Shown: piece by piece, positions 4,735 through 63,011 of the stretch
How positions within the stretch are numbered: the first letter of the stretch is position 1
Layout of the letters: each line of letters starts with the position of its first letter
DNA from: Escherichia phage vB_EcoS_FFH_1
Length of the DNA stretch: 64,000 bases
Reading direction: 5' to 3' (one strand)
Sequence record: KJ190157
Translations under genes and position numbers: made by a program
The notes under the pieces: generated by a model
What the model was told of the DNA's origin: nothing
Databases searched by the model: none
What the model saw: the letters and a program-made list of their open reading frames with translations, nothing else

Positions 4735-7068
4735 TTATAATTGGCAACCACCTGATGCGCATCCAGCAGCAGCTTCCTCTCCTGCACCTCCACCGTTTGC
4801 GGTGTTGAAGTTAGCATAATAGAAAGTTTTCCACCCGTACTTAACAGCAGTCATGAAATCACGAACTACTACTGGGCCAGGAATAATTTCATTCTCAAAC
4901 TTGGTGTAGTCGTAGTACATATTAGTACTGATAGACTGGCTGAAGAATTTCTGCATAGTTGCTACCCATTTGATCCACTCGATACGATCTACATCATAAG
5001 CCAATTTATAGCTCATTAACGTTTCCCAATCGGTTGCACCTGGAGCAATTGCAATTACTTTATTTACTGCACTACCCTTGATAGATACAATCTTACGTGG
5101 TGGTTCGATAGAGTTAGTAACACCTAACAGAACAGAAGAACTTTCTCCCGGCATCTGAGCAGTCAGAACAGAGTTACGCATACCATATTTCAGAATATCT
5201 GCACGTAGAGACTCCCAATCCATTTCTAGACCTATGGATACCAGTTCATCAACAGTTTTCTTGTACGTGTCGATTACCAAAATTCCCTTAGATGGTTTAG
5301 TACGATCAAACCACTCACATGCACCCTGTTCTTTAGCTAGGCGTACAGAGGCTTTATGCAGGAAGTAAGACAGTTTTTCAGCCTCACGGTGAATCCAGTT
5401 ACGTGCTTCAATACCTTCATAAGCCAGACCTTCTGCGGCCATTGCACCTGCTGCGTTCATTAGGCCAATACCAACATTACGACGTTTCTTAGCCGTATAT
5501 TCCATAGTTGGGAACGGATAATCCTGAATTTCGATAATTGTATCAATGAATTTCAGAAGGATGTAGCAAGTTTTTTCCCACTCAGCCAGAGATTCCATGC
5601 GTCCAAGTACAACACCACCTAAGTTACACAGAGATACTTCACCAATATCCTCCGGCTTCATTTGATCAAGCTGCTCTTTTGTCTTATACAGCTCTGTGAT
5701 ATGATGGAACGGGCGTGTAGGCTGAGTAATCTCAACACAAAGGTTTGTCATACGGATCGGATCAAGGAAATTACCATGACGATTAGACTCCCCAATGTGA
5801 TGAGCATACATACGTCCTGTTTCCATTCGGATACGTAGCCAAGTATCTAGGATTTCTTTTGCAGAGACTTTAGGAGCTGCTGGAACTGTTTTTCCTTTGT
5901 GGTCGATCTTTGTAAGAGATGCCACACGTTTCTCCGCTGCCACATAGATTTCTTCAAATTTAGCCTCGTCATCACTATAAAACGCTTCATGAACTTCTGG
6001 AGCATAGAAGTATGACATTAGCGTAATATCTTCATTTTTCAGATAACGTTTTAACAAAAGATTGTTGAAGCTCAGAGAATAATCCATCTTATCGATTTTA
6101 TTCTCATCTGTAGCACGTTGTTGCTTAACCTGCATCAATTGAATGATTTCAGGGTCAAAGTATGGATAAGACACTGTAGCAGAACCACCACGAGTTTGCT
6201 GAGTATTGGCCTTTACTGAGCGGTCAATGTGTCGATAATATGGCAGTTTTCCGGAATGCGGGAATGCCCCATTTCGCACCGGATCAGCAATTGATCTGCT
6301 CTCAAGATGATACCCGATTCCCGCTCTGGCTGCGACCATTTTGAAGACGATGTGCTCGGCGGTGTCGATTGAATCCAACGTGTCAGTGGAATCCACGAGG
6401 CAGCAACTAGCAAATCCACGGTCACTAGAGCGCAGACCAACCAGTGGCGGCGTAGGAACGTTGATTTTGTGGAGCGACATTGCGTTGTAGAGGTCGATTG
6501 CATCTAGAATTGTCCAGTTAGGTTGAGATAACATCGCCATTGCCATACCCATGTAGGCAAACTGCGGGGTTTCATAAATTTCACCAGTGGCTATGTTACG
6601 ACGGGAATACTTATCAAAGAACTGCTTCAGCCCACCACTAGTAAAAAGACGGTCACGATCATGGTCGATAACCTGATTCAGAGCTTCAAATTGCTCATCG
6701 GTAATCCATGCACTCATGTCTTCCCATGCACCTACGCTAACCATGTGGTCATGGAAGAAACGTAGAGAAGGTGGTTCGAAGGAGTCATAAAGGCGCTTAC
6801 GCATTTGCGCAAGACGTAATTCCTTTGCTGGCACATCGTATGCTGGGTTATCTTTGATAAGACTTTCAGCAGCTTTAATTAATGCGTCCATCAGAGTGTC
6901 GGAATCTACAACCCCTTTAGGTAGAGTTTTTTGAGCAGCCATAGTAATGGCTGACCAACTTACATCAACTGTTTTGCAACCATACTCTGCCCAACCATTG
7001 AGTTTTTCAGGAGCAAAGTCTTCTACAGTACCGTCACGTTTAATTACTTTTTCAATGCGATGGCTCAT
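4735..7068 (-). CDS. nrdA: class I ribonucleotide reductase alpha subunit (R1)
   Basis: ATP-cone-like N-terminus (VIKRDGTVEDF), NLCVEIT active-site loop, C-terminal Cys pair CASGGCQL; start placed at internal ATG 7068 (AAGGAAA SD); the longest ORF extends to 7173. Confidence 0.88.
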   Translation of the reverse strand: MSHRIEKVIKRDGTVEDFAPEKLNGWAEYGCKTVDVSWSAITMAAQKTLPKGVVDSDTLMDALIKAAESLIKDNPAYDVPAKELRLAQMRKRLYDSFEPPSLRFFHDHMVSVGAWEDMSAWITDEQFEALNQVIDHDRDRLFTSGGLKQFFDKYSRRNIATGEIYETPQFAYMGMAMAMLSQPNWTILDAIDLYNAMSLHKINVPTPPLVGLRSSDRGFASCCLVDSTDTLDSIDTAEHIVFKMVAARAGIGYHLESRSIADPVRNGAFPHSGKLPYYRHIDRSVKANTQQTRGGSATVSYPYFDPEIIQLMQVKQQRATDENKIDKMDYSLSFNNLLLKRYLKNEDITLMSYFYAPEVHEAFYSDDEAKFEEIYVAAEKRVASLTKIDHKGKTVPAAPKVSAKEILDTWLRIRMETGRMYAHHIGESNRHGNFLDPIRMTNLCVEITQPTRPFHHITELYKTKEQLDQMKPEDIGEVSLCNLGGVVLGRMESLAEWEKTCYILLKFIDTIIEIQDYPFPTMEYTAKKRRNVGIGLMNAAGAMAAEGLAYEGIEARNWIHREAEKLSYFLHKASVRLAKEQGACEWFDRTKPSKGILVIDTYKKTVDELVSIGLEMDWESLRADILKYGMRNSVLTAQMPGESSSVLLGVTNSIEPPRKIVSIKGSAVNKVIAIAPGATDWETLMSYKLAYDVDRIEWIKWVATMQKFFSQSISTNMYYDYTKFENEIIPGPVVVRDFMTAVKYGWKTFYYANFNTANGGGAGEEAAAGCASGGCQL

Positions 7069-14193: not shown

Positions 14194-16983
14194 GTGTTTT
14201 CTATCCTCCAAGGTCACGCCGGTTTTTCTCGTGATTTAGCAACAGGTATTTGGCGAGAAATCAAAGCGGAAGATTATACCTTTGCCAAACGATTCTCGAA
14301 AGAGCATCCAGAAGGTAAACCAGCTTCTATGCCCTTCAAATTTGATGTAATAGAAGAGCACGACCCACAAAGCCTTGCCGAAATGTTACCACTTATGAGA
14401 CGTTTAACGTCTGACCCTCATATCGTTGCGGTACGAGGTCGATGTCTTGCACCTAAAAATAATGTGCGACGTAAGAAAGGTAACTTTAATGTATCCAACC
14501 CTAGCAATATTATTGCTATGGACGTGGATGGTATCCTAGATACCGGTGGGTATGACAAGTTTAATCTTGTAGGTATGGCTCGCCACATTATTAAGATGTT
14601 GAATAGTATTAGTGAGGATATGTTTCCTCTTGATGCAGGGTTTATTGCTCATGCATCGTCTTCGGCTGGCCTAAAACCAGGTATCCGAATGCACTTAATG
14701 CTAGAATCTAACGTCAAGGTAACTCAAGGTCAGTTAAAGTTCTTATTTACGTCTATCAATGATAGTAGTAAGCAAAAATTCGGTTTTGATATTGCCGACT
14801 TAGCTTATTACTCATCTGTCCAGCTTCACTATTTTGCCGACCCTTTATTTAGCGATGGTATTGTTGATCCGTTTAAAGCGGAGAGTAAGCCACGTCTGGT
14901 ATATGTTAAAGGTTCGAAGGTAAATTTGCCCAATAATCTGGTTGACTATGAAACAACTAGAGGGGAATTTAAGGAAGAGTTTTATTCTTTACTTGATCAA
15001 ATTAAAGGCAAAAAGATTGCTTCTGATAAAGTAGAAGAAACCATCAGCGAATTGGAAGAAGCCGAGGATGGGGTGTACTTGCGTATTATCCCCAAACTCT
15101 ACCATAGAGCATTAGAGGATGGTGTTGATTTCGCATGGCTAGAACGCGAGATTAAACCCGCTTTATCTGAATATATTGCAACTAAAGATAACAGTCGTAA
15201 TATTCAAGATTACTTTAATAACGGTCGTAAGCAGGCTCTCAAAGCGTTTGTTAATAATTCTAAACGTGAGATCCCATTAAATCTGAAGGGTGTTCCACTC
15301 AAGAAATTAGAAGTGGATTCTCCACCAGAAGTTCCGTACCTGAAGATTAACATTGTGCCTCCAAAAGGCCATATAACATTTGTTAAGGCAAGTCTTGGTA
15401 CTGGTAAGACTACGGCAGTAACTAAATGGCTGGACGCAGGTGTTCTTCCTGGCAACTTTTTAGCAGTTACAAATACTAGAGCACTGGTATCTTCAAACGC
15501 TAAGAAATTTAGCGCAGGACAATATGATAAGTCTGTAGATATGCTCAACTTTAAACGTGGAGCTATTGATCGTATGTCTACAACTATCCACTCTTTGCAT
15601 AAGTTCAAAAGTTTTATTGGTCAAATAGATACCATTTTTATTGATGAATGTGATGCTGTAATGAATGATCTATTATTCGCACCTGTTGTTAAGCAACGTC
15701 GCGAATGTATTCAAGTTCTACGTGACATCCTCATGACAGCTAAAACTGTAATTCTATCAGATGGTGATATTAGTGCCGAAACTATTGAAGCATATGGTTC
15801 TCTAATTGATTTTGATAAACCAGTAGCATTTTATAATCATCACCGTAAGATGCTGTCAAAAGCTCATGCTTATGAGTTCCCGGATGAATCCAGTATTTGG
15901 GTTGCACTTCAGACCTCTCTAGAGATGGGTGAGAAATCTATCCTAGTATCTGATTGTGGGCCGGATGAACTGAATGAGAAGGGCATGGCATTGCGTCGTA
16001 ATACGGGTGCGCTAGTTAAGGAAATCCACTCAAACTCCACTTCAGATGTGGATATTAGACGTATTCTGGATTATACGACTAATGAGTTAATTGATCAACA
16101 AATTGACTGCTTATTATGTAGTCCATCCGTAACGAGTGGCGTTGATTTCAACTATTTTGATAACGTATTTGTTATTACTAGAACTAGTAATCAAGCGCCA
16201 AACATGCGTTTCCAAGCAATTAGGCGCGACCGTGGTGCTCAGAATATCTATTATTTTATTGATAAATCTACGAGTGGATTCTCCGCAGGTTCTGAACAAT
16301 ATAATATTGATGAGGGTTGGCTGGAGTTAGCACAGCAATTATACGCACGTCGCAGAGAGCTAGAATCTAGGAACTATACTAGTACTTTACGTTATTACTT
16401 GCTTGATCAGGGTGCAACTATTGATATTTTCAGTGAAAGTTGGGGAACTATTGAAGGTGCTGGTAAAGAGTACACAGAAGAGCGAATTAAAGCTATTCTA
16501 CATTCAACTCCTGATTATTGTGCTCCACGTCATGCGGATGCGTATGAAGCTAAACTACTTCTTGTCCGCTATTATCATCTTGAGTCTATTAAAGATGTAA
16601 CAGTTGAGCATGTTGAACAATATATCAAAGATAAACCGAATGATCGAGCTGCATTCTTCCATAAGATGCACGAGATGTTCTGGGAAGATATTAAGAAGTG
16701 TTCAAATGTGACCATTAAACCATTCATAGAGGCTCTGAAAGGTAAGAAGAAAGACTTCTTCCTTAAAACAGGTCAGAGTGCTAACCCAAAATATGCTAGA
16801 ATGTATCTTGGTATGATGGGTATTGGTAAGGATATGAACACTGAAAATATTGTAGACTGGTACAGAACCTATTGTAAAATCGAGTGTATGCCAATCCCAT
16901 ATAAGTTTATGACTGATGAGGAGAAACATATGCATGATGAAGCAATGGCAGAGCTAGGTGCTAGAAATGACAGTGAAGAATAA
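14194..16983 (+). CDS. large P-loop NTPase (929 aa), putative replication initiator / origin-binding helicase-like protein
   Basis: GTG start with AGGAG SD; central Walker A LGTGKTT and Walker B FIDECDAV; ~380-aa N-terminal domain of unknown fold. Confidence 0.55.
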   Translation: MFSILQGHAGFSRDLATGIWREIKAEDYTFAKRFSKEHPEGKPASMPFKFDVIEEHDPQSLAEMLPLMRRLTSDPHIVAVRGRCLAPKNNVRRKKGNFNVSNPSNIIAMDVDGILDTGGYDKFNLVGMARHIIKMLNSISEDMFPLDAGFIAHASSSAGLKPGIRMHLMLESNVKVTQGQLKFLFTSINDSSKQKFGFDIADLAYYSSVQLHYFADPLFSDGIVDPFKAESKPRLVYVKGSKVNLPNNLVDYETTRGEFKEEFYSLLDQIKGKKIASDKVEETISELEEAEDGVYLRIIPKLYHRALEDGVDFAWLEREIKPALSEYIATKDNSRNIQDYFNNGRKQALKAFVNNSKREIPLNLKGVPLKKLEVDSPPEVPYLKINIVPPKGHITFVKASLGTGKTTAVTKWLDAGVLPGNFLAVTNTRALVSSNAKKFSAGQYDKSVDMLNFKRGAIDRMSTTIHSLHKFKSFIGQIDTIFIDECDAVMNDLLFAPVVKQRRECIQVLRDILMTAKTVILSDGDISAETIEAYGSLIDFDKPVAFYNHHRKMLSKAHAYEFPDESSIWVALQTSLEMGEKSILVSDCGPDELNEKGMALRRNTGALVKEIHSNSTSDVDIRRILDYTTNELIDQQIDCLLCSPSVTSGVDFNYFDNVFVITRTSNQAPNMRFQAIRRDRGAQNIYYFIDKSTSGFSAGSEQYNIDEGWLELAQQLYARRRELESRNYTSTLRYYLLDQGATIDIFSESWGTIEGAGKEYTEERIKAILHSTPDYCAPRHADAYEAKLLLVRYYHLESIKDVTVEHVEQYIKDKPNDRAAFFHKMHEMFWEDIKKCSNVTIKPFIEALKGKKKDFFLKTGQSANPKYARMYLGMMGIGKDMNTENIVDWYRTYCKIECMPIPYKFMTDEEKHMHDEAMAELGARNDSEE

Positions 16984-31419: not shown

Positions 31420-33238
31420 GACACTAAAATTTAGTAACGTTATGTCTTACGGTAAAGACATCGTAATTCATTTCGATAAGAATCCAGTTACTCAACTAAT
31501 TGGTGGCAATGGGCTAGGGAAATCTACTATCGCCACGGTTATAGAAGAGCTATTCTATAATAAAAATTCTCGCGGTATTAAAAAGGATGCATTGTTCTCT
31601 TGGAATGCCCCTAAGAAAGAATATGATATGCACGCTTATTTCTCGAAAGATGATGATGAGTATGAGCTGCATAAAGTAGTTAAGTCAACTGCTAAAGTAA
31701 CGTTGATTAAGAATGGGGAAGATATTAGTGGACACACTGCAACCCAAACATACAAGATGATTGAAGAGATTATGGGTGGTGACTTTCAAACATTCACCAA
31801 ACTGATTTATCAATCAGTGGGTTCCAACCTAGATTTTCTAAAAGCAACGGATGCAACACGTAAGGCTTTTCTTGTTAACTTGTTCAATCAAGAGCAATAC
31901 AAAGAAATGTCGGAAACTGTTAAGGCTGACCGTAAAGAAATAGCAAATACCTTAAATAATTTGCAGGGCCAGATGGCTGTAATTACGAAAATCCTTAATG
32001 GGAAAAATAATCTAGGAACTTTGCAGGAACCTGTAGAAGTACCGGAGTTTGATGAAGAACCATTAGCACAAGAACTTACTGAATCGAAAATTAAGGCGGC
32101 ATTAGCCAAGTCTCAAGAGGCTAATATTACTAAATTGCGTAATTTGGACAAAGCTGTACAAGTTGCCGAACAATCTTTCGAGCCTTTCAAAAATTTGCCT
32201 GCGCCCACTGACCAAAATGAAGAGATCTCGAGTGTTACGCGTGACCTAACGATTGTGACCTCACGTGCGAGCGAAGTTAAGAAACGTTATCAGAAGTTCA
32301 AGCAAGAGGCTTCAAATACTGAATGCCCTACTTGCGGTACTCACCTGGATACAACTGCTGCTAAAAAAGCAATGGATATGGCTAGAGTAGAATATGATCC
32401 TCTGTTCAAAGAGAAGCAATCTCTTGAAGCTAAGCTAGAACAGTTGAAGAAAGAACAACTTGAGTACGTTGCGTATACTAGAGCAAAGGATGCTTTGGAT
32501 AAAGCAGTGGTAGCTAGAGACGAGTTCAAAAATTCAATGAGTGATGCTTCTTTTGAAGAACTCAATGTGCAAATCCTACAGGTGCAAATCCGACAATTAG
32601 AACAGGAAATCGCTGATGGCCGCTCTAAAGTTGCAATTGCCAAAGAGCATAATGCAAATGTTGAATTAGCCAATGCAAAATATAAAGCGAAACTAGAACA
32701 GATTGAGAAAGCTGAGGCAGAAATGTCTGAGATTACTTCCAAACTGGATGGAGTATCAGAGGCTGTTGCTGATCTGGATATTCTGATCGCCGCATTGAAA
32801 AATCTGGTAGGGTATAAACTAGAACATAGTGTGAAAGTATTTGAAGAGCTTATCAATAAATACCTTTCCATTATGACTGGCGGTAAGTTCGCACTTGGAT
32901 TTGAGCTTGATGAAACAAAATTACAAGTAGTAATCTTCAATGATGGAAACCGTACCAGTATGGAGAACTGCTCTACTGGCCAGCAAAGTCGAATCAACCT
33001 AGCAACTCTGTTAGCTATTCGAATGCTACTAACATCTATTAGTAAAGTTAATATTAATCTTCTATTCCTTGATGAAGTAATTAGCTTTATTGATACTAAA
33101 GGACTTGACACTCTTGTTGAACTATTAAATGAGGAAGAAAGTCTAAACTCTATCATTGTTTCTCATGGGCATACGCATCCATTAGCTCATAAGATTACTG
33201 TCAAAAAAGATGCAGAAGGATTTTCCTACTTAGAATAA
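31400..33238 (+). CDS. SbcC/Rad50-like ATPase with zinc hook
   Basis: N-terminal Walker A GGNGLGKST, central coiled coil with CPTCG zinc hook, C-terminal Walker B LLFLDEV; start at ATG 31400 (MSKITIKTLKF), not the upstream in-frame ATG at 31319. Confidence 0.8.
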   Translation: MSKITIKTLKFSNVMSYGKDIVIHFDKNPVTQLIGGNGLGKSTIATVIEELFYNKNSRGIKKDALFSWNAPKKEYDMHAYFSKDDDEYELHKVVKSTAKVTLIKNGEDISGHTATQTYKMIEEIMGGDFQTFTKLIYQSVGSNLDFLKATDATRKAFLVNLFNQEQYKEMSETVKADRKEIANTLNNLQGQMAVITKILNGKNNLGTLQEPVEVPEFDEEPLAQELTESKIKAALAKSQEANITKLRNLDKAVQVAEQSFEPFKNLPAPTDQNEEISSVTRDLTIVTSRASEVKKRYQKFKQEASNTECPTCGTHLDTTAAKKAMDMARVEYDPLFKEKQSLEAKLEQLKKEQLEYVAYTRAKDALDKAVVARDEFKNSMSDASFEELNVQILQVQIRQLEQEIADGRSKVAIAKEHNANVELANAKYKAKLEQIEKAEAEMSEITSKLDGVSEAVADLDILIAALKNLVGYKLEHSVKVFEELINKYLSIMTGGKFALGFELDETKLQVVIFNDGNRTSMENCSTGQQSRINLATLLAIRMLLTSISKVNINLLFLDEVISFIDTKGLDTLVELLNEEESLNSIIVSHGHTHPLAHKITVKKDAEGFSYLE

Positions 33239-42348: not shown

Positions 42349-45197
42349 TAAATGGATGCCCACTCCACAGACTGTTCTCCATCATCCCCTTCAGCCCTAA
42401 TACGAAAATACAATTTTCTATTTATACCTAGAGCACCACTGTTCTGGAGAGCAAAGTCTGCCTTATTATACGTTAATAAATAGTCATAAGTATACTGATT
42501 TTCAATACGTACACTTCTTAACATCCTATTTTGTGAATCGTGTATTTCAAGGGTATAAAATATACTCTCTATTATATCTTCTTCAGGTATTCTATCCCAG
42601 GCTAGTTTCACATCTGGGCCAACAAACTCAGTTACATCTCCGGAAGCAGTATTAGTTACCCTAAAATTAGATACTACACTAAGGTTTTTAGCAGAGTTAA
42701 GTTCTATAGACAGAGTCACCGGGGAACTTCTTCTACCATTAATATCTACTGCCCTTATCTCAAATATAGCCAGACCTGCTGGTTCTCCAATTATTTCTTG
42801 GATCATACGTTCGTTAGGGTTGGTCTCTAACTGTTGTACTATGTAAGGTTCGGCATGGCCTGAGTGCACGATAGAGTAATAAACTACATTATTGGTTAGA
42901 CTCGGAAGCCAGGATAACTCACCATTTTTACCTATAGAACCAACTAAGCCACCGGGTGTAGGAGTATACTTAAAATCTCTAGGAGGAAGAACATTGTTAC
43001 TAATATCTGGTATATCATTACCGCTATTATCAACCTGCTCAGAGTTAATGAATACATCTTCTCCATACTCCTGTAGAGTAACATTTATCTTACCCTCTCT
43101 AGAGTTTTCAACCTCATCAACTAGGAAATACTTTTTGTCCCATCCATAACGATCATATGTGAATGCAATAGCATCATTAGGCTCAATACCAATGAATTGA
43201 TATGGCAATGAGAAAGAAAGTGTTCTTGAGTATCTGGATTTCTTAAGTTCTCTATCCGCAAAACTTCTTGCAGTATAGTAATTAGTAATATTAGCAAAAG
43301 ATAGTTGTAATTTTTTATCCAGGTTCTTGTCCTGTTCCTTATACTTGGAGTTATAGAATGTAATGGAATTAGTTTTCCAGCTAAGGGCTGGGTCTACGAT
43401 AGATGCTTGAACTGAGTTGAATTTATTTCTACCAGTAGTATCTGATAGCTCCAAATCACCATAAGTATCTAGAAAATTAATCTCTAATGGAGTATTAGAG
43501 TATTTTTCTACAGTAACCCTGTACTGGCCAGATAAGTTGTTAATAGCCCCACCGTAGGACTCTAATAAACCTTGCACATTTTTAAATACTGATTCAGATG
43601 TATCCAGAATAGTATTCATTTGTACTATTTGTCTATTTTCTGCTAGTGGATCAGTCCACCCAACGTATCTCCAATATGGCTGCCAAGATACCTGATAGGA
43701 TTCATCTATAATATCTAAAATAGCTGCTTCCTGTATTAATTGCTGAAGGGGGAACTGATCAATGGTAATATTAGCGCCATATCTATCAGAGGTTAAGTAA
43801 TCAAGTGTTTGCCAAATACCATTTAAACTAGTACTATTAGCAGTTACTCTACCATCAGAATGATAGACTTTTACTTTTTTACCTTGAATTTCAGCACTAA
43901 CTTCAGGAATCTCAGTCCTATTTTCATTAATAGTGAAGCGCACCACTGCGTATGCAGTATCTAATAGTTTATACCTAGCATCCCAGTACTCCGGTCCATT
44001 GCCATTCATATTCTGAAGGTAGAACCCACGTTCTTTAGCTATATCTACTAGTACTTCAGAAGCCGTTTGATCAGATTTTCCATGATACGTCCAAATTCTT
44101 ATGTCACCATTACCATCATTATACTTATATTCCTGCCCATGCACGGAAGGACTACTAGAAGGTGTTCCTGACGCTATTCTTTGCATGGTGTCCCCAGCCA
44201 CTTTTTTAGTACCAAAGCAGGTTCTAGCGGAGCTATCATTAGCATCTACGCAGATCATAGGGTTATCACCAAAGGAGAAATCAAGAAAACCATCAATCTC
44301 CCCCTCAGCAAAGGCATATACGACATAAACTATGTTGGGATTGTGTAGTTCTGTATCAGCAAAAATGGGTATTCCAGGAATTTTTTGAACTCCATAAACC
44401 ACCGGTATGTATTTAGCAGCAAGGTTAAAATCTATATCCACTTCCTTAGTGACAGTTTCATAGTATTTTTTAAGGCTGTAGCTTCTAGATAAACCAAATA
44501 GCTTTTTCTTAGACTTTAGCTTGTATCTTTCTTCCTGTACCTGATATTTTGCTAGAATAGAGATACTTTTATTGGCATGAAAGAACCCATAATCTTCTTG
44601 GTATTCAAGTCTTTTAGCCCCGTTAGATGGAACTAACTGCCCTGCTACAACCTCAAGCCCTCTATGAGAAGCATCATCAGTAAATCTACCATTAACCCTA
44701 TCAAAATCATAGAACTGGTTAGAACAATTCCAAGTAATTGTGGATGTTCCAACCCCAGAAGTACTAATGTTGTCCTTAATACCACCACCGGTAATTCTTC
44801 CTCTAAAGTATAATAAAGGGCCATTTGTGTCTGGGTCTACCGGTAAAATAGAACCATCTTCTGTAATAATTGCTTGGTGGATTGATACTATTCTATCTAA
44901 AAAGGACACACCATTCTGCACTAATTTAAGTACTTCATCCTGCGCTGTACCTGTAATAGTAAAAGATAGACTGCCAATAGATAAATCTCTATTTTGTTTA
45001 TGTGTGCTAATGGACTTAACCTTACCGGCCTGGTACAAAATACCATTATATAGTACATCTCTAAAATAATCAGTTAAATAAATAAAAGCAGTACTAGTAC
45101 CAGTAGAGCCAGGTAATTCTAGGGAAATTAGACTAGCAGTTTTTATTCTGCTATTATTTTTTAAGTAGTTTCTAGCACTATCTAGTATTTTCTTCAT
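42348..45197 (-). CDS. baseplate hub protein (pb3-like)
   Basis: 949 aa, downstream of Dit-like gene with ATGA overlap; size equals T5 pb3 from memory. Confidence 0.6.
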   Translation of the reverse strand: MKKILDSARNYLKNNSRIKTASLISLELPGSTGTSTAFIYLTDYFRDVLYNGILYQAGKVKSISTHKQNRDLSIGSLSFTITGTAQDEVLKLVQNGVSFLDRIVSIHQAIITEDGSILPVDPDTNGPLLYFRGRITGGGIKDNISTSGVGTSTITWNCSNQFYDFDRVNGRFTDDASHRGLEVVAGQLVPSNGAKRLEYQEDYGFFHANKSISILAKYQVQEERYKLKSKKKLFGLSRSYSLKKYYETVTKEVDIDFNLAAKYIPVVYGVQKIPGIPIFADTELHNPNIVYVVYAFAEGEIDGFLDFSFGDNPMICVDANDSSARTCFGTKKVAGDTMQRIASGTPSSSPSVHGQEYKYNDGNGDIRIWTYHGKSDQTASEVLVDIAKERGFYLQNMNGNGPEYWDARYKLLDTAYAVVRFTINENRTEIPEVSAEIQGKKVKVYHSDGRVTANSTSLNGIWQTLDYLTSDRYGANITIDQFPLQQLIQEAAILDIIDESYQVSWQPYWRYVGWTDPLAENRQIVQMNTILDTSESVFKNVQGLLESYGGAINNLSGQYRVTVEKYSNTPLEINFLDTYGDLELSDTTGRNKFNSVQASIVDPALSWKTNSITFYNSKYKEQDKNLDKKLQLSFANITNYYTARSFADRELKKSRYSRTLSFSLPYQFIGIEPNDAIAFTYDRYGWDKKYFLVDEVENSREGKINVTLQEYGEDVFINSEQVDNSGNDIPDISNNVLPPRDFKYTPTPGGLVGSIGKNGELSWLPSLTNNVVYYSIVHSGHAEPYIVQQLETNPNERMIQEIIGEPAGLAIFEIRAVDINGRRSSPVTLSIELNSAKNLSVVSNFRVTNTASGDVTEFVGPDVKLAWDRIPEEDIIESIFYTLEIHDSQNRMLRSVRIENQYTYDYLLTYNKADFALQNSGALGINRKLYFRIRAEGDDGEQSVEWASI

Positions 45198-56706: not shown

Positions 56707-57201
56707 TTAGCCTCCAGGAACAGTAGGATTAACTGTCACAGCACATGCAGTAGAATCCTTACTTACTTGCTTACTATCTGTTACAGTTACTTTATAGGCT
56801 CCAGAATCCTCCGTAGCTGCTGCAGGCTTAGTATAGGTAGCTCCTGAAGCTTCCGGAATAGGAGAACCATCTTTAGTCCATGCATAAGTATATGGACTAG
56901 TACCACCAGTTGCAGTAACAGAAAGTGTTAATGCTGCTCCCTCTTCAACTGACATGCTAGTAGTTAAATCTTTAGAAAGAGTTAACGGTGGGGCCGGTGG
57001 AGCAGGAGGAACTGCTTTACCATAAGCCTCTACAAATTTCTTCCATACTTTACGGTTAGTATGCGCAGATGAAAGTCCTAGTTCTCTACGCAGAAAAGCA
57101 TAGCTAGGAACATATTTATGCGCAGCGACCGTAGCAAAGAAGATATGAGATTCTGGCAGTTTTTCACCAAAAATGGTCTTTAGACCATTATAATCAATCA
57201 T
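56707..57201 (-). CDS. capsid decoration protein with Ig-like domain (pb10-like)
   Basis: 164 aa; C-terminal Ig-like segment TLSVTATGGTSPYTYAWTKDGSPIPEASGATYTK...YKVTVTD. Confidence 0.6.
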   Translation of the reverse strand: MIDYNGLKTIFGEKLPESHIFFATVAAHKYVPSYAFLRRELGLSSAHTNRKVWKKFVEAYGKAVPPAPPAPPLTLSKDLTTSMSVEEGAALTLSVTATGGTSPYTYAWTKDGSPIPEASGATYTKPAAATEDSGAYKVTVTDSKQVSKDSTACAVTVNPTVPGG

Positions 57202-58415
57202 TCTTTATCTCCCTCGGTGGAACCTTGAGGTCTACCACCTTCTTGACCAGATACACCTGTTGCAGAACCAGCAACGTTAGCAGGAATACGAATCCTATCC
57301 ATCTGCTCATCATCTAAAGGTTCAAGGTTCAGCTCTAAACGAGCTTCGTTACCAGTCATAATACCATTATTAACCAATGAGGTTAAATGTTTAGCCTCAG
57401 CTTCTTTATCTGGTGTTAATGCAGCTACCTCCTTAGTATTAGGAGTAATCTTATAACCAAAAAAGAAAGTAAGAGAACTAGTCAGTTTGTTCAGCATAGG
57501 AATGATAGTCATATAATAGAACAATTCGATGTTTGGTCGAATATTCGCATTATTACCACCATCAAGCAGTACTTGCGGAACTCCAAAGGCTAGACAAATA
57601 GATTTATTAAATCCTTCGATGTCTTCCTTAAAGTCTAGATCTTTAAAAGAGGATATTTGGGAGTACGGTTTAGCTTTCATACCACCATCTAGAATCAGGA
57701 CAGAAGACTGACCAGTACTAGGATTATAATCGAGTTGTAATTCTTCTTGTTTACGCTCACGCAATTTCTTGTTCAGGATTTCATCCGTTTCAAGAATAAG
57801 ACCAATCACGGTTCCATTATCTAGGAATTTCTCTTTAAAGTTAAGCATCTTAGAACGCTTCTCAAGAGAATCAATAACAGTAGCAACACGAGATTGTCCA
57901 GAAATTTGAGAGTTTGTGCCGCACACGTAACTGTTATCCTTTATAAAGATAATCTCATCTACGCGATAGTCTATCTGATTATTAAATATAAATTTTTTGA
58001 TAAACTTATTGGCATCTGCCTCGACCTGCATAAGAGCAGCCGGGACATGGTAAAGCGATGTGCCATCCCAATAGATGTATGCACAACCTTCAAAAAGTAG
58101 GTCAGTGACTACAAGTCTACGGAATGTGCTTATATCCATGAATGGATTAGGTCGTACATTTAAGAGAGTGTCTAGAGTCTTTGTTTTGACGCCATTAGCG
58201 TACGTAACAATATTATATTTATCTCCGACAGTATAAGAACACTCCGCCGCACTATCTATAACCATATTGGCAGTTCGATTGAGAATCTCAATCTTGCTAT
58301 AGGCTTGTCCAGTGGTAAAAGGCTTACGGTTAGTGCGATGACTAACTGGTTCCATGTCTCTTATAATACGTTGACCCGGATTTAACTTTTCAGTAATCCA
58401 GCTTTTTAAACCCAT
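57198..58415 (-). CDS. portal protein (pb7-like)
   Basis: 405 aa downstream of terminase/HNH; overlaps neighbours (TAATG, ATGA). Confidence 0.75.
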   Translation of the reverse strand: MGLKSWITEKLNPGQRIIRDMEPVSHRTNRKPFTTGQAYSKIEILNRTANMVIDSAAECSYTVGDKYNIVTYANGVKTKTLDTLLNVRPNPFMDISTFRRLVVTDLLFEGCAYIYWDGTSLYHVPAALMQVEADANKFIKKFIFNNQIDYRVDEIIFIKDNSYVCGTNSQISGQSRVATVIDSLEKRSKMLNFKEKFLDNGTVIGLILETDEILNKKLRERKQEELQLDYNPSTGQSSVLILDGGMKAKPYSQISSFKDLDFKEDIEGFNKSICLAFGVPQVLLDGGNNANIRPNIELFYYMTIIPMLNKLTSSLTFFFGYKITPNTKEVAALTPDKEAEAKHLTSLVNNGIMTGNEARLELNLEPLDDEQMDRIRIPANVAGSATGVSGQEGGRPQGSTEGDKE

Positions 58416-58852
58416 TATAAGAACCTTGCGAATCCTGATTTTATTTCAGTCTTGACTTGTGTCTTTTCTTGAGGATTCTGTAATTTGTCTTTCTGCTTTT
58501 GAACCCACACTTTTTGCTTATTAGCAGAAAATAAAGGAGGTTCTTTTGTGTAAACCTTATGTAATAATTGGTGATGGTGTACACAAAGGGTAACAGTGTC
58601 TTCTACTAGCTCATGCCTATATCGATCATAGAATGCCGTCCTATTTGAAAGGACTATTTCTTCGTCAGTGAAATCCAATTGGAGTTCTTTAGCAAATTTT
58701 TTAACTAGTAGAGACACCGTATGGTAATGATGAAGCTCTAATTCTTCAGCACAACCGCAGATAGCACATTGAGAGTCTTTTTTATATTGACTTTTTATTC
58801 CGTCTCTCATAAGGGATATAGCATCGCGTTTATATTTTATATTGCTTGCCAT
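58415..58852 (-). CDS. HNH endonuclease (terminase-associated type)
   Basis: Cys/His-rich HNH-like motifs CAICGCAEELELHHYH ... LCVHHHQLLH; start at ATG 58852 with GAGGAG SD (ORF track extends to 58939). Confidence 0.7.
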   Translation of the reverse strand: MASNIKYKRDAISLMRDGIKSQYKKDSQCAICGCAEELELHHYHTVSLLVKKFAKELQLDFTDEEIVLSNRTAFYDRYRHELVEDTVTLCVHHHQLLHKVYTKEPPLFSANKQKVWVQKQKDKLQNPQEKTQVKTEIKSGFARFL

Positions 58853-58966
58853 AGTGTTCTCCTCAACTGTATGAATATAGTATACATAATCGTATCGAAT
58901 TTGTAAAGGGGATTTTAAAATACAGGAATGGGATACCAACTGAGTAGTATCCCATCCTATACTTAT

Positions 58967-60283
58967 TTATTTACCACGGGAAATAGAATAAATTCCATAG
59001 CGGAGCGCATCACAAAGGTGAGAGTTAGCATCATGACGTGGTTTTTCACGTGATAATTTCTCTTCACCTTCTTGGAAATCCCACTTATAGTTCTGCAGTG
59101 CATGGATTAAGGAGGAACATGAGGCATCCACAATAATCTTACCCTGCTGGAATAGCGCTTGTAGGCATGCTAGACCATCCAGGACAGATTTTTTAGCTGG
59201 AGCTGATGCAATTTCATGCTCATAAGCTAAATCCTGGCGGAACTGAGCAGCGGCAGAGTCAACAAAAATACGATCAACTTTATAACGATCTATACAGTGC
59301 TGAATATAAGCAGCATGCTGAGCTGTGGTTTTCTCCGCCTGCTGGTACTCTTCTAATACATAGTAAGTATCCGTATCATAGTGATATTTAATAGTAAGAA
59401 CTGCTGTAGGATCACGATAACCAACGTCAATACCAAGCAATGTTTCGAATGCTTCATCATCTTTAAAGAAGTGACGCATACCTTTGAGGTCTTTAACATG
59501 ATCAATAGCATTAAAGGTATCAAAGATCTGGCCTTCGAATACAGAGAAGTCAGCCTCGTATTCCTGGCGGAAATAGTTTTTACTAACCGTACGACGTGCT
59601 TCCTCAATGTCATTCAAATCAGCACGCGGGTTATCACGATATGTACCATGAATAGACACCCAATTAGGCAACGTATCATCAAATCCGTAGGCGTAAAACT
59701 CTTTAAACCAGTTACCTCCACGAGGGGTGGAAATAAATAGAGCCTTAGAATTAGGTTTATCTAGGGTAGGACGCAGCTGAACCCTGAAGGCATCACCACC
59801 CACATCGGAAATTGCCGCCTCGTCAAAGATGATAAAATCATATGAACGTCCAACCGCGGAGTCAGCCTGAGCCGCGGAAGCTAGTTTAAATAGAGAACCA
59901 TTAGCTAACTCAATCTCTTTATCTTTAGCGTTTTCACGTTCGGTTTGTAGGCCGTACTTCTTAATAAGACCACGAATCTGAGACCATCCGATATTAGCTA
60001 GTGAATAGTTAGGGGCAACTACTAGCACCTTCACATTAGGTTCCAGCAATTTTAGGAACCCAAGTGTATACGCTATAAAAGATTTACCTACACGGCGTGA
60101 TACACACGCCGTTACAAAACGATGTCTAGGGTCTTCTAGGGCATTGATAATTGCTATTTGAGGGCCATTAGGCGTGATACCTTCTTGCGCTAGTATTCCG
60201 GAAACTGGTAAACGAAAGAAACGCTTATCTATTCCGAAATCAATAACATCTACTGTGTTAACATAGGGTCTTGATACTTCCAT
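58967..60283 (-). CDS. terminase large subunit
   Basis: 438 aa; Walker A SRRVGKSF, Walker B FIIFDEAA, C-terminal nuclease-like acidic residues. Confidence 0.9.
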   Translation of the reverse strand: MEVSRPYVNTVDVIDFGIDKRFFRLPVSGILAQEGITPNGPQIAIINALEDPRHRFVTACVSRRVGKSFIAYTLGFLKLLEPNVKVLVVAPNYSLANIGWSQIRGLIKKYGLQTERENAKDKEIELANGSLFKLASAAQADSAVGRSYDFIIFDEAAISDVGGDAFRVQLRPTLDKPNSKALFISTPRGGNWFKEFYAYGFDDTLPNWVSIHGTYRDNPRADLNDIEEARRTVSKNYFRQEYEADFSVFEGQIFDTFNAIDHVKDLKGMRHFFKDDEAFETLLGIDVGYRDPTAVLTIKYHYDTDTYYVLEEYQQAEKTTAQHAAYIQHCIDRYKVDRIFVDSAAAQFRQDLAYEHEIASAPAKKSVLDGLACLQALFQQGKIIVDASCSSLIHALQNYKWDFQEGEEKLSREKPRHDANSHLCDALRYGIYSISRGK

Positions 60284-60765
60284 TACTTCTTACCTCCAGT
60301 AGCTAGGGAAGTAATTAAATCCATGTAGTTTTGATCCCCAGCTCCAGCAATAATGTTATTCTGGATATTAGTCTGATTAGCAGGAGCTCGAACGGCAGCT
60401 TTAGCTTTTTCTAACTCTACCATCATCTTCATTTCTTCCATCTTCATTTTGTGTGCTTTCCAGAGAATATCCATAATATCTTGGTCAGAACCCATGCCGG
60501 TTTCTTCCAGTTCCTCTAGTTTACGCTTGATAACTTCATCCAGAACACCAAATAAACGATCCCTATTACGGAAACCACTCTCCATAAAAATATCATTTAA
60601 GTAGTTCTTAACTTCACTACGATTCATAATATCTCGGAAAGCAATTTCGGACATTCCAAGACTACGTGCGGCAGAAGGCACATCGCTGCCGCACTGTAAA
60701 TAAGCTTCAATTACATCCATCCCTTCAGGGGACATAAGATCTGGTACTAATACATCATTTGCCAT
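60283..60765 (-). CDS. terminase small subunit (putative)
   Basis: 160 aa directly upstream of and overlapping the large subunit gene; N-terminal HTH-like [17 protein letters not shown]. Confidence 0.55.
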
Positions 60766-60775
60766 ATTTCCTCCT

Positions 60776-62698
60776 TTAGGTAAGGCGTTGAATTATAAGT
60801 TTAATATTTGGTAAGCATGCTTTCATGCCAATTATATTGCTCATAGAGGATTCTAACCAAATAGAGATATTATTATTTCCATCATTTCTCATATAGTATG
60901 TTAGAGTATAGTAACCCGTTTGACCTACGGATCCTGGCAACCCAGATACCCAGTACGGAGTTGGAGTATACCCAGCAGCCTGTAATTTACAAGCATTTAC
61001 TACAGTACCTTTAATAGTAAAAAATGGTACATATTCTCCTGCAGGTAGGGACAATATTTGGTGAAGTTTTTTATCAATAGTATTGCCACCCATTCTAAAC
61101 CTACTATCGCCATATTCAGCGCCTTTAGATAGCATTTCCGTAGGATTAAAGCAGCCAATACCTCCTGCAGACAACCATGTGTCATCTAGGAACTCCATAG
61201 TACATACAATTGCACCATTTCTGCTACTATTAAGATCTAGTCCCACGGTACCAACATGCACGGAACCATTACCCTGAAATACTATGTTACCAGATAGTAC
61301 AGTACTTCCGCTACCACCTAGAAGTCTTAAAGGTAGAAGATTTTCACTCCAAACGTCCCCATAATTACTCCCTATTTTTGGAGGATTACTAGAAACATAC
61401 CAAGATGCTGAAGGTAAAAAGTTATAAATACTAACTACATTAGTATTTAAACCACCAACGTTACCACCCTTAATACTTGGTGCGTTATTGCTTTCTGTGG
61501 TTGGTAGTCCAAATGTTGCTATGCCAGAGATCCCAGTAGAGGGGCCACCCATACTCAAGTTACACCCAACATCACGAAAATCAGCTCTGCTCCCTACATT
61601 AAAGTTTTTCTCAACAAAGTTGATAAACTTCCAAGATGTATTATTAACGTTAATACCTTTAATAATAAATTCAGTGGGGCTTAATTTTATATCATTACCT
61701 GTAAATAATCCAGCATCAATACTATAACCTGAACCATTATACACTAAGTTAGTAACATACCAGGTAATTTTAGATGGATAAATACCGAGGTGCTCACTAT
61801 ATATACCTATGGGCCCATTAGCAGCATCATTCGGATCACCCATACTTTCCCAATACGCATAGTTAGTGGGATCAGCACGTGCGAAACCTACAGAGTACTT
61901 AGGAGCCGAGGGATTGCTAGGATTAGACATAAAGTTAAGAGCCCCTGAACTCGACGCCCCATGTACAGCTCCAGCAGTGGTGTAGTTGGGCCCTTCCATA
62001 CCATAAAGAACTCTATTACAAGACCTACCACGAACATATATGGCGTTAAATCCAAAGTTTCTAGCTCCTGGATGCCTAACGTAGTCGCTAGGGATAGTTA
62101 GAGTTCCTGAATCCGGCACTACATATCCTGAACCATCCCAGGCAGATTTGTAAAGAGCGGCACCGCCTAAGTACATTGCACTAGATGCAAATCCTCTACG
62201 CCCACTAAAGGCTCCAAACATATGCTGACATCCAGTACCATCTCTAAGCTTCTGGGGGATCGTACCGCTAGTACCACTATTAAAATAGCCTACATCAAGA
62301 GATAGATCAGCACTAGCTGTTATTTGTGTTTTTAAACCACCTTGAGACATGACCTGCGGATTTATAATTCCATACGCTTTAGCTCCTACCCCCATAGACA
62401 TGCCAGATAGCATATGTCTAGAGCCATCTGAGAACTCAATTTCTGTTAGCACAACTCTATTGGGGTCATTATTATGTAGCTGTGTAATTCTACTAGGCAT
62501 CTCAGACCAGTAATAGTCACCAGCACCCTGATCCAACCTTAACCCAGTAGAATGAGTTTCCGTTATAATTACGTGCGGCATATCTGAGTGAAAGATGGTT
62601 TGGGAATCAGGGTTGATATGTTGGTTAGTATCCCCACCACTACCCCTTCGCAGTGAGAGTATAGATTTGTTATTTAGCTTACCAGCGAAAAAACTCAT
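60776..62698 (-). CDS. oad: receptor-binding tail protein (pb5-like)
   Basis: 640 aa, Gly/Ser/Asn-rich; first gene of the minus-strand late block, divergent from lipoprotein gene; size equals T5 pb5 from memory. Confidence 0.65.
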
Positions 62699-62777: not shown

Positions 62778-63011
62778 ATGAAAAAATTATTTTTAGCTCT
62801 GGCAGTGGTAATTCTTTCGGCTTGCTCTACTTTTGGGCCTAAAGATATTAAATGTGAGGCCTACTATATGCAGGATCATGTGAAATATAAGGCCAATGTT
62901 TTTGATAGGAAAGGGGATATGTTTCTGGTGTCACCAATCATGGCCTATGGATCTTTCTGGGCTCCAGTAAGCTACTTTACCGAGGGGAATACATGTGAAG
63001 GAGTTTTCTGA
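62778..63011 (+). CDS. llp: lytic-conversion lipoprotein (Llp-like), predicted receptor-blocking
   Basis: 77 aa; signal peptide with lipobox MKKLFLALAVVILSAC; TTGCTT-N17-TATAAT promoter and AGGAG SD; adjacent and divergent to receptor-binding protein gene. Confidence 0.75.
   Translation: MKKLFLALAVVILSACSTFGPKDIKCEAYYMQDHVKYKANVFDRKGDMFLVSPIMAYGSFWAPVSYFTEGNTCEGVF

Follow-up and report, generated by a model that had tools for sequence, protein, structure and literature searches.

A very probable orthologue of the T5 nicking endonuclease gene sciA between the large terminase and portal genes of a T5-like phage

The window, which is the whole stretch of 64,000 nucleotides analysed here, comes from a T5-like phage (Demerecviridae, Markadamsvirinae) and takes in its late region together with part of the early one. 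On its minus strand, an ORF encoding a protein of 145 aa (58852→58415; ATG 58852-58850, TAA 58417-58415) lies between the gene for the terminase large subunit (terL, 58967-60283, minus strand; Pfam Terminase_6N/6C) and the portal gene (57198-58415, minus strand; Pfam Phage_portal, 9e-51), and is referred to below as sciA. The stop codon of sciA and the ATG of the portal gene (58415-58413) overlap by exactly one base, 58415, within the sequence TAATG. The preliminary description of a Cys/His-rich ORF between terL and portal, overlapping the portal start by one base, was thus confirmed from the coordinates and from the Pfam assignments of the neighbouring genes. The same spacing of -1 between sciA and portal was observed in BF23, T5, AKFV33, Stitch and Sugarland, an arrangement that would be typical of translational coupling. 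A Shine-Dalgarno sequence read from the DNA, GAGGAG (58859..58864, minus strand), is located 6 nt 5' of the sciA ATG, and the record of phage Stitch has a ribosome-binding site annotated at the matching place. A mechanically produced ORF list extends the frame to a TTG codon at 58939; the ATG was taken as the start because all orthologues, as well as the construct in the Protein Data Bank, begin there.

The 114-bp spacer between terL and sciA (58966-58853) contains two features recognised by their match to consensus. Directly past the terL stop codon is a terminator-like hairpin with a 13-bp stem and a T-rich tail (58926..58957, minus strand), followed by a sigma-70-like promoter match, TTTACA-17-TATACT (58879..58907, minus strand), which would start a transcript running through sciA, portal and the head genes; the BF23 record has a predicted promoter annotated at the homologous position. 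Upstream of terL lie the gene for the terminase small subunit (terS, 60283-60765, minus strand; so named by PHROGs and in most records) and the gene for the receptor-binding protein pb5 (62698-60776, minus strand), and downstream of portal the genes for a decoration protein, the prohead protease and the major head protein follow in the same minus-strand order. A 77-aa lipoprotein-like ORF (beginning MKKLFLALAVVILSAC; 62778-63011, plus strand) is divergent from the 640-aa ORF at 60776-62698 (minus strand). In position and size these two match T5 llp and oad (pb5), the receptor-blocking and receptor-binding pair, and the resemblance suggests an FhuA-type T5-like phage.

A phmmer search aligned the sciA product over its full length with the PDB chains 9qgv_A and 9qgx_A, both entitled 'Nicking endonuclease' (E 6.5e-80; residues 1-145 on 4-148 of 9qgv_A). 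These entries (9QGV and 9QGX) are crystal structures of the T5 orthologue, T5.153, bound to GCGC DNA, and the two proteins, each of 145 aa, are 83.4% identical. The UniRef cluster that is 99% identical to SciA is named 'Nicking endonuclease, Tequintavirus', and the same annotation is attached to the gene in BF23 and in many further records. In PHROGs the protein belongs to phrog_3497 (3e-69), a family of unknown function. Database searches recovered 114 homologues at E ≤ 5e-22, all of which carry PF26848. A scan with a copy of Pfam that lacks PF26848 found no HNH family for SciA at E ≤ 0.1, NCBIfam gave no match, and the sole curated HNH match in sequence was a weak one to PHROG 8048, 'HNH endonuclease' (E 6.2e-6, residues 24-99). 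Pairwise dN/dS values were 0.13-0.20 for sciA, compared with 0.04-0.09 for portal and 0.03 or less for TerL, indicating that sciA is under purifying selection that is looser than that acting on either neighbour. The 114 homologues, these dN/dS values and the solved T5 structure establish that the ORF is a real gene and not a chance frame.

These findings make it very probable that the ORF at 58852→58415 is the orthologue of T5 sciA (T5.153), encoding a small zinc-containing HNH-like (His-Me finger) nicking endonuclease. On this reading, the window has an already known and characterised T5-like phage gene at its customary position. It shares with T5 sciA the residue His42, the Cys/His ligands, the position between terL and portal, the one-base overlap and a conserved GCGC site, and differs from it in that the first ~103 codons belong to another allele class and in that a T5orf172 gene abuts sciA in T5 only, not in the window. 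The appropriate annotation is sciA / nicking endonuclease, instead of 'HNH homing endonuclease' or 'packaging HNH'. With regard to activity, older work quoted in PMC3517423 gives sciA and sciB as two late-region loci of T5 that control the nicks, and describes T5 virion DNA as carrying strand-specific nicks at the consensus R/GCGCRGG. A literature search returned no primary paper behind 9QGV and 9QGX and no experimental paper identifying T5.153 as the nickase, so the claim of activity is based on the titles of PDB entries, on names in databases and on older genetics cited second-hand.

SciA contains 4 Cys and 8 His residues, which include the pattern C29-x2-C32 ... H41-H42 ... C90-x2-H93-H94-x3-H98. 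Among 58 diverse homologues (41-99% identity), residues R16, D17, K20, Y23, C29, C32, H41, H42 and R71 are invariant, as are L89, C90, H94, L97, H98, Y101, P105, Q113, W116 and V117. The order of elements, with C29-x2-C32 preceding a strand that ends in H41-H42, followed by a strand containing C90 and a helix containing H93-H94-x3-H98, is that of a zinc-stabilised beta-beta-alpha-metal (HNH/His-Me) motif in a divergent form, in which a helical insertion of ~45 residues separates the HH strand from the C-x2-HH-x3-H helix. No invariant Asn was found from H42 to H98 in the 58 homologues: N70 is replaced by Met in the homologues from Vibrio phages, and the invariant residue beside it is R71. Because the canonical Asn of the H-N-H signature is not conserved, SciA represents a variant, as is the case for other His-Me finger enzymes. 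The earlier label 'HNH-like' fits the beta-beta-alpha-metal motif; among curated models it has the weak PHROG 8048 match and no Pfam HNH match, and the Asn is not conserved.

The predicted fold of SciA superimposes on T5 SciA with a TM score of 0.97. Its predicted folded core spans residues ~9-125; after it come a linker predicted to be disordered and, at the C-terminus, the conserved motif GFARFL. The predicted catalytic residue, His42, is encoded at 58727-58729 (minus strand); the depositors of the SciA entries changed this residue to Gln or Ala in order to trap DNA complexes, which makes His42 the probable general base. For the SciA of this phage we infer the activity, the strand and sites cut and the roles of residues other than His42. 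The enzyme would be produced at a late stage of infection, alongside terminase, portal and the head proteins, and would recognise GCGC-containing sites (published consensus R^GCGCRGG) and cut only one strand, with His42 serving as the general base. Such cuts would give rise to the fixed single-strand interruptions typical of T5-like virion DNA. By analogy, a structural zinc would be held by C29, C32, C90 and one His of the pair 93/94, and His98 would bind the catalytic metal.

The window contains a predicted SciA target, G^GCGCAGG (GGCGCAGG), at 32198-32205 on the minus strand, with the predicted nick between 32205 and 32204. This site aligns with the major single-chain interruption annotated in T5 at 78573/78574, and its 91-nt context is 98% identical. 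Since the homologue of a major T5 nick is kept, the expected substrate of SciA is present; among the mapped major nick sites of T5, this is the only one whose homologue falls inside the window. Further exact matches to R/GCGCRGG are located at 44939-44946 (minus strand) and 15511-15518 (plus strand). The minus-strand match might serve as a further or minor nick site, whereas in T5 the strand of the plus-strand match carries no nicks. The window shows no enrichment of RGCGCRGG (3 occurrences versus 1.9 expected; 33 of 100 shuffles reach 3). Given that the 5' two-thirds of sciA are only 68-83% identical to T5 in nucleotides, a specificity equal to that of T5 SciA is an assumption.

The tetranucleotide GCGC occurs 43 times in the window versus 62.7 expected under a Markov model, an observed/expected ratio (O/E) of 0.69, with ratios of 1.04-1.07 for CGCG, GGCC and CCGG. 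The ratio for GCGC was 0.86 in the 60-112 kb stretch of T5 and 0.96 in Pectobacterium phage My1, which lacks sciA. A claim of GCGC avoidance was considered and rejected, as the effect is too weak and is confounded by possible restriction avoidance. In My1, one strand has six copies of RGCGCRGG and the other a single copy, at no position homologous to those of T5, and nothing in this genome matches the T5 nick context. PMC3517423 and PMC11780129 describe a comparable situation in the Pseudomonas phages tf and phiKMV/phikF77, which like T5 carry strand-specific nicks at a short consensus and have viable nick-less variants; their consensus motifs are different, and they belong to unrelated phage families. 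On the purpose of the T5 nicks the window adds nothing new; it contributes a variant allele of sciA and a single target site that is conserved.

The place of sciA beside the terminase genes raises the question of a link to packaging, and the C-terminus of the protein bears on it. Residues ~126-145 (58415-58477) consist of a low-confidence linker followed by the hydrophobic GFARFL motif, which appears in other homologues as GFGKFL, SLDRFKV or KWASLI. Of the 113 SciA homologues, 68 have the pattern [FWY]xx[FWYL] within their final 9 residues, versus 5-7% of control windows, and the PDB chain models of SciA from the fold search have 119-121 of 148 residues present. Through the conserved motif, SciA may dock on a partner protein. 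A candidate partner is suggested by the T5 terS gene, which is labelled 'sciB / SciB protein' in AY587007 and likewise in AKFV33 and other records, and whose product is 98% identical to TerS of the window. [quoted passage not shown] SciA might accordingly be tethered to the packaging machinery, its C-terminal peptide docking on the small terminase (SciB) and its nicking being gated by terminase during packaging. We regard this extension of the nickase reading as possible, though rather unlikely.

A stronger role in packaging is improbable. SciA would here act in the manner of HK97 gp74, as an HNH protein that binds terminase, promotes or completes the cleavage by which concatemers acquire their ends, and is needed for packaging. 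Terminase-adjacent HNH proteins are described as components of the packaging machine in other phages (PMC3592412, PMC5304195), and sciA likewise adjoins the terminase genes, 114 bp downstream of terL; it lies directly between terL and portal, to which it appears to be translationally coupled. The 'SciB protein' label of the adjacent terS in AY587007, sciB being the second nick-frequency locus, would fit such a role, as would a C-terminal peptide that could dock on a partner past a disordered linker, and the nicks are said to arise before encapsidation. However, no similarity of SciA to HK97 gp74 was detected either by sequence or by profile comparison (BLASTP E 0.68; hhalign probability 0.9%, E 0.06), and SciA differs from the terminase-associated group as a whole (HK97 gp74, GVE2 HNHE, N.phiGamma) in having no Pfam HNH match, no conserved Asn and an insertion of ~45 residues. 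The phages that carry sciA have genomes ending in long direct terminal repeats, not cos sites, and the TerL of the window has an RNaseH-like nuclease domain of its own (Terminase_6C). Nick-less T5 mutants are described as viable, and the gene as dispensable for growth, in PMC3517423 and PMC11780129.

Pectobacterium phage My1 (JX195166; Demerecviridae, Mccorquodalevirinae) provides a natural comparison. Its TerL is 76% identical to that of the window and its portal protein is homologous, but the interval between the two genes is a non-coding, non-homologous gap of 287 bp (5315-5601 of the JX195166 stretch examined). A profile search (hmmsearch) with SciA over the 110 kb of unique My1 sequence gave a best E of 0.56, versus 6e-68 for the same search in the window. 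The viable nick-less T5 mutants, together with My1, which packages its DNA without sciA, argue that SciA is not essential for packaging, and the suggestion of a gp74-type packaging cofactor was not supported.

The distribution of sciA was compared with that of its neighbour. A tblastn search with SciA matched 901 places in 898 phage records, with hosts including Escherichia, Salmonella, Klebsiella, Proteus, Aeromonas, Providencia and Vibrio, and the adjacent TerL matched 906 records with almost identical organism tallies. The best 60 of the 898 SciA records are all from T5-like phages, and the gene spans at least three subfamilies and two unassigned genera. The order terS-terL-sciA-portal is kept in the window, T5, BF23, Vibrio phage Ceto, Proteus phage 2, Klebsiella phage Sugarland and Salmonella phage Stitch. 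By megablast, the 3.4 kb around sciA are 98% identical to several Tequintavirus genomes and match 448 phage records, 431 of which cover at least 80% of this terL-sciA-portal region; among these close relatives, no empty sciA site with conserved flanks was found. By organism tallies, the records that have TerL and no sciA match number 8, comprising 4 from Pectobacterium phages (one of them My1) and 4 from Salmonella phages. The split sciA frames in SUT_E420 and STWB21 were considered as natural knock-outs and rejected, because the essential portal gene is truncated or split there too, so that the splits are probably sequencing errors.

The single copy, the conserved synteny, the presence in 898 versus 906 records and the purifying selection together mark sciA as a core gene of the Demerecviridae packaging/head module that is passed on vertically, and not as a homing element; the gene would also be non-essential. 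The preliminary description had left open whether the gene was a packaging cofactor or a mobile HNH insert, and had proposed a synteny comparison with related phages; by the comparisons made here, neither appears to apply. A homing HNH endonuclease of the free-standing type, selfish, landed between terL and portal and spreading through the cutting of relatives without sciA, would agree with the small size and intergenic position of the gene, with the absence of sciA from the family member My1 and with the insertions that this locus takes elsewhere (T5.154 in T5, AKFV33 and Sugarland; in Proteus phage 2, a 683-aa ORF), but it is scarcely credible for a gene found once per genome at a constant place, with no empty site found in close relatives, at a dN/dS of 0.13-0.20, and kept in Stitch, a phage stated by its authors to have no HNH homing endonucleases.

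The mobile pattern belongs instead to a neighbour of sciA. In T5, AKFV33 and Sugarland an extra endonuclease gene separates terL from sciA, overlapping the start of the latter. In T5 this gene is T5.154, whose product has T5orf172/MUG113, CapR and treble-clef zinc-finger domains and shares 53% identity with the copy in Sugarland. The T5.154 family was found at 304 places in 234 records, at several loci in T5-like genomes and also in unrelated phages of Campylobacter, Klebsiella, Vibrio (59 kb) and Salmonella (156 kb), thus in several unrelated phage families. Close copies at the terL-portal interval number about 86 and are sporadic. The mobile gene at this locus is therefore the T5.154-type T5orf172 endonuclease (GIY-YIG-like), which in some T5-like phages occupies the same interval as sciA and belongs to an unrelated protein family. 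The earlier remark that this position is a landing site for mobile genes was right for the spacer, as seen with T5.154 in T5, AKFV33 and Sugarland, but not for sciA itself. The T5-like terL-portal locus thus combines a conserved gene for a nickase with a mobile T5orf172 endonuclease that some genomes carry. At the terL-sciA junction of Proteus phage 2, a Novosibvirus (MT679222, 1850-3901 of the stretch examined), a 683-aa ORF with no Pfam match forms a third kind of occupant.

Alignment junctions place the insertion point at 58860..58871 (minus strand), 8-19 nt 5' of the sciA ATG. In T5 and AKFV33, about 720 bp with T5.154 are inserted at the equivalent of 58860-58871 and replace the native ribosome-binding region of sciA. 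As T5.154 is absent from the window, the site is empty here, and it is likewise empty in BF23 and Stitch. Over most of terL and portal, the window is 92-100% identical in nucleotides to T5 and AKFV33; this value falls to 68-83% at 58543-58871, which comprises sciA codons 1 to ~103 and the 19 nt 5' of them, and returns to 92-98% past this block. The divergent block begins exactly at the T5.154 insertion point and runs through the first ~310 nt of sciA. BF23 and Stitch, which have no insert, show no divergent sciA block relative to the window; the 5' part of sciA in the window is of a BF23-type allele class. In a sample of the tblastn hits at 82-85% amino acid identity, the 4 with annotated records all carry an overlapping 'endonuclease' feature. 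The association of the T5orf172 gene with the divergent 5' allele of sciA gives the block the appearance of a co-conversion tract. As a separate reading of these alignments, likewise possible though rather unlikely, the T5.154-type homing endonuclease would always travel with the divergent 5' segment and would thereby shuffle specificity alleles of sciA.
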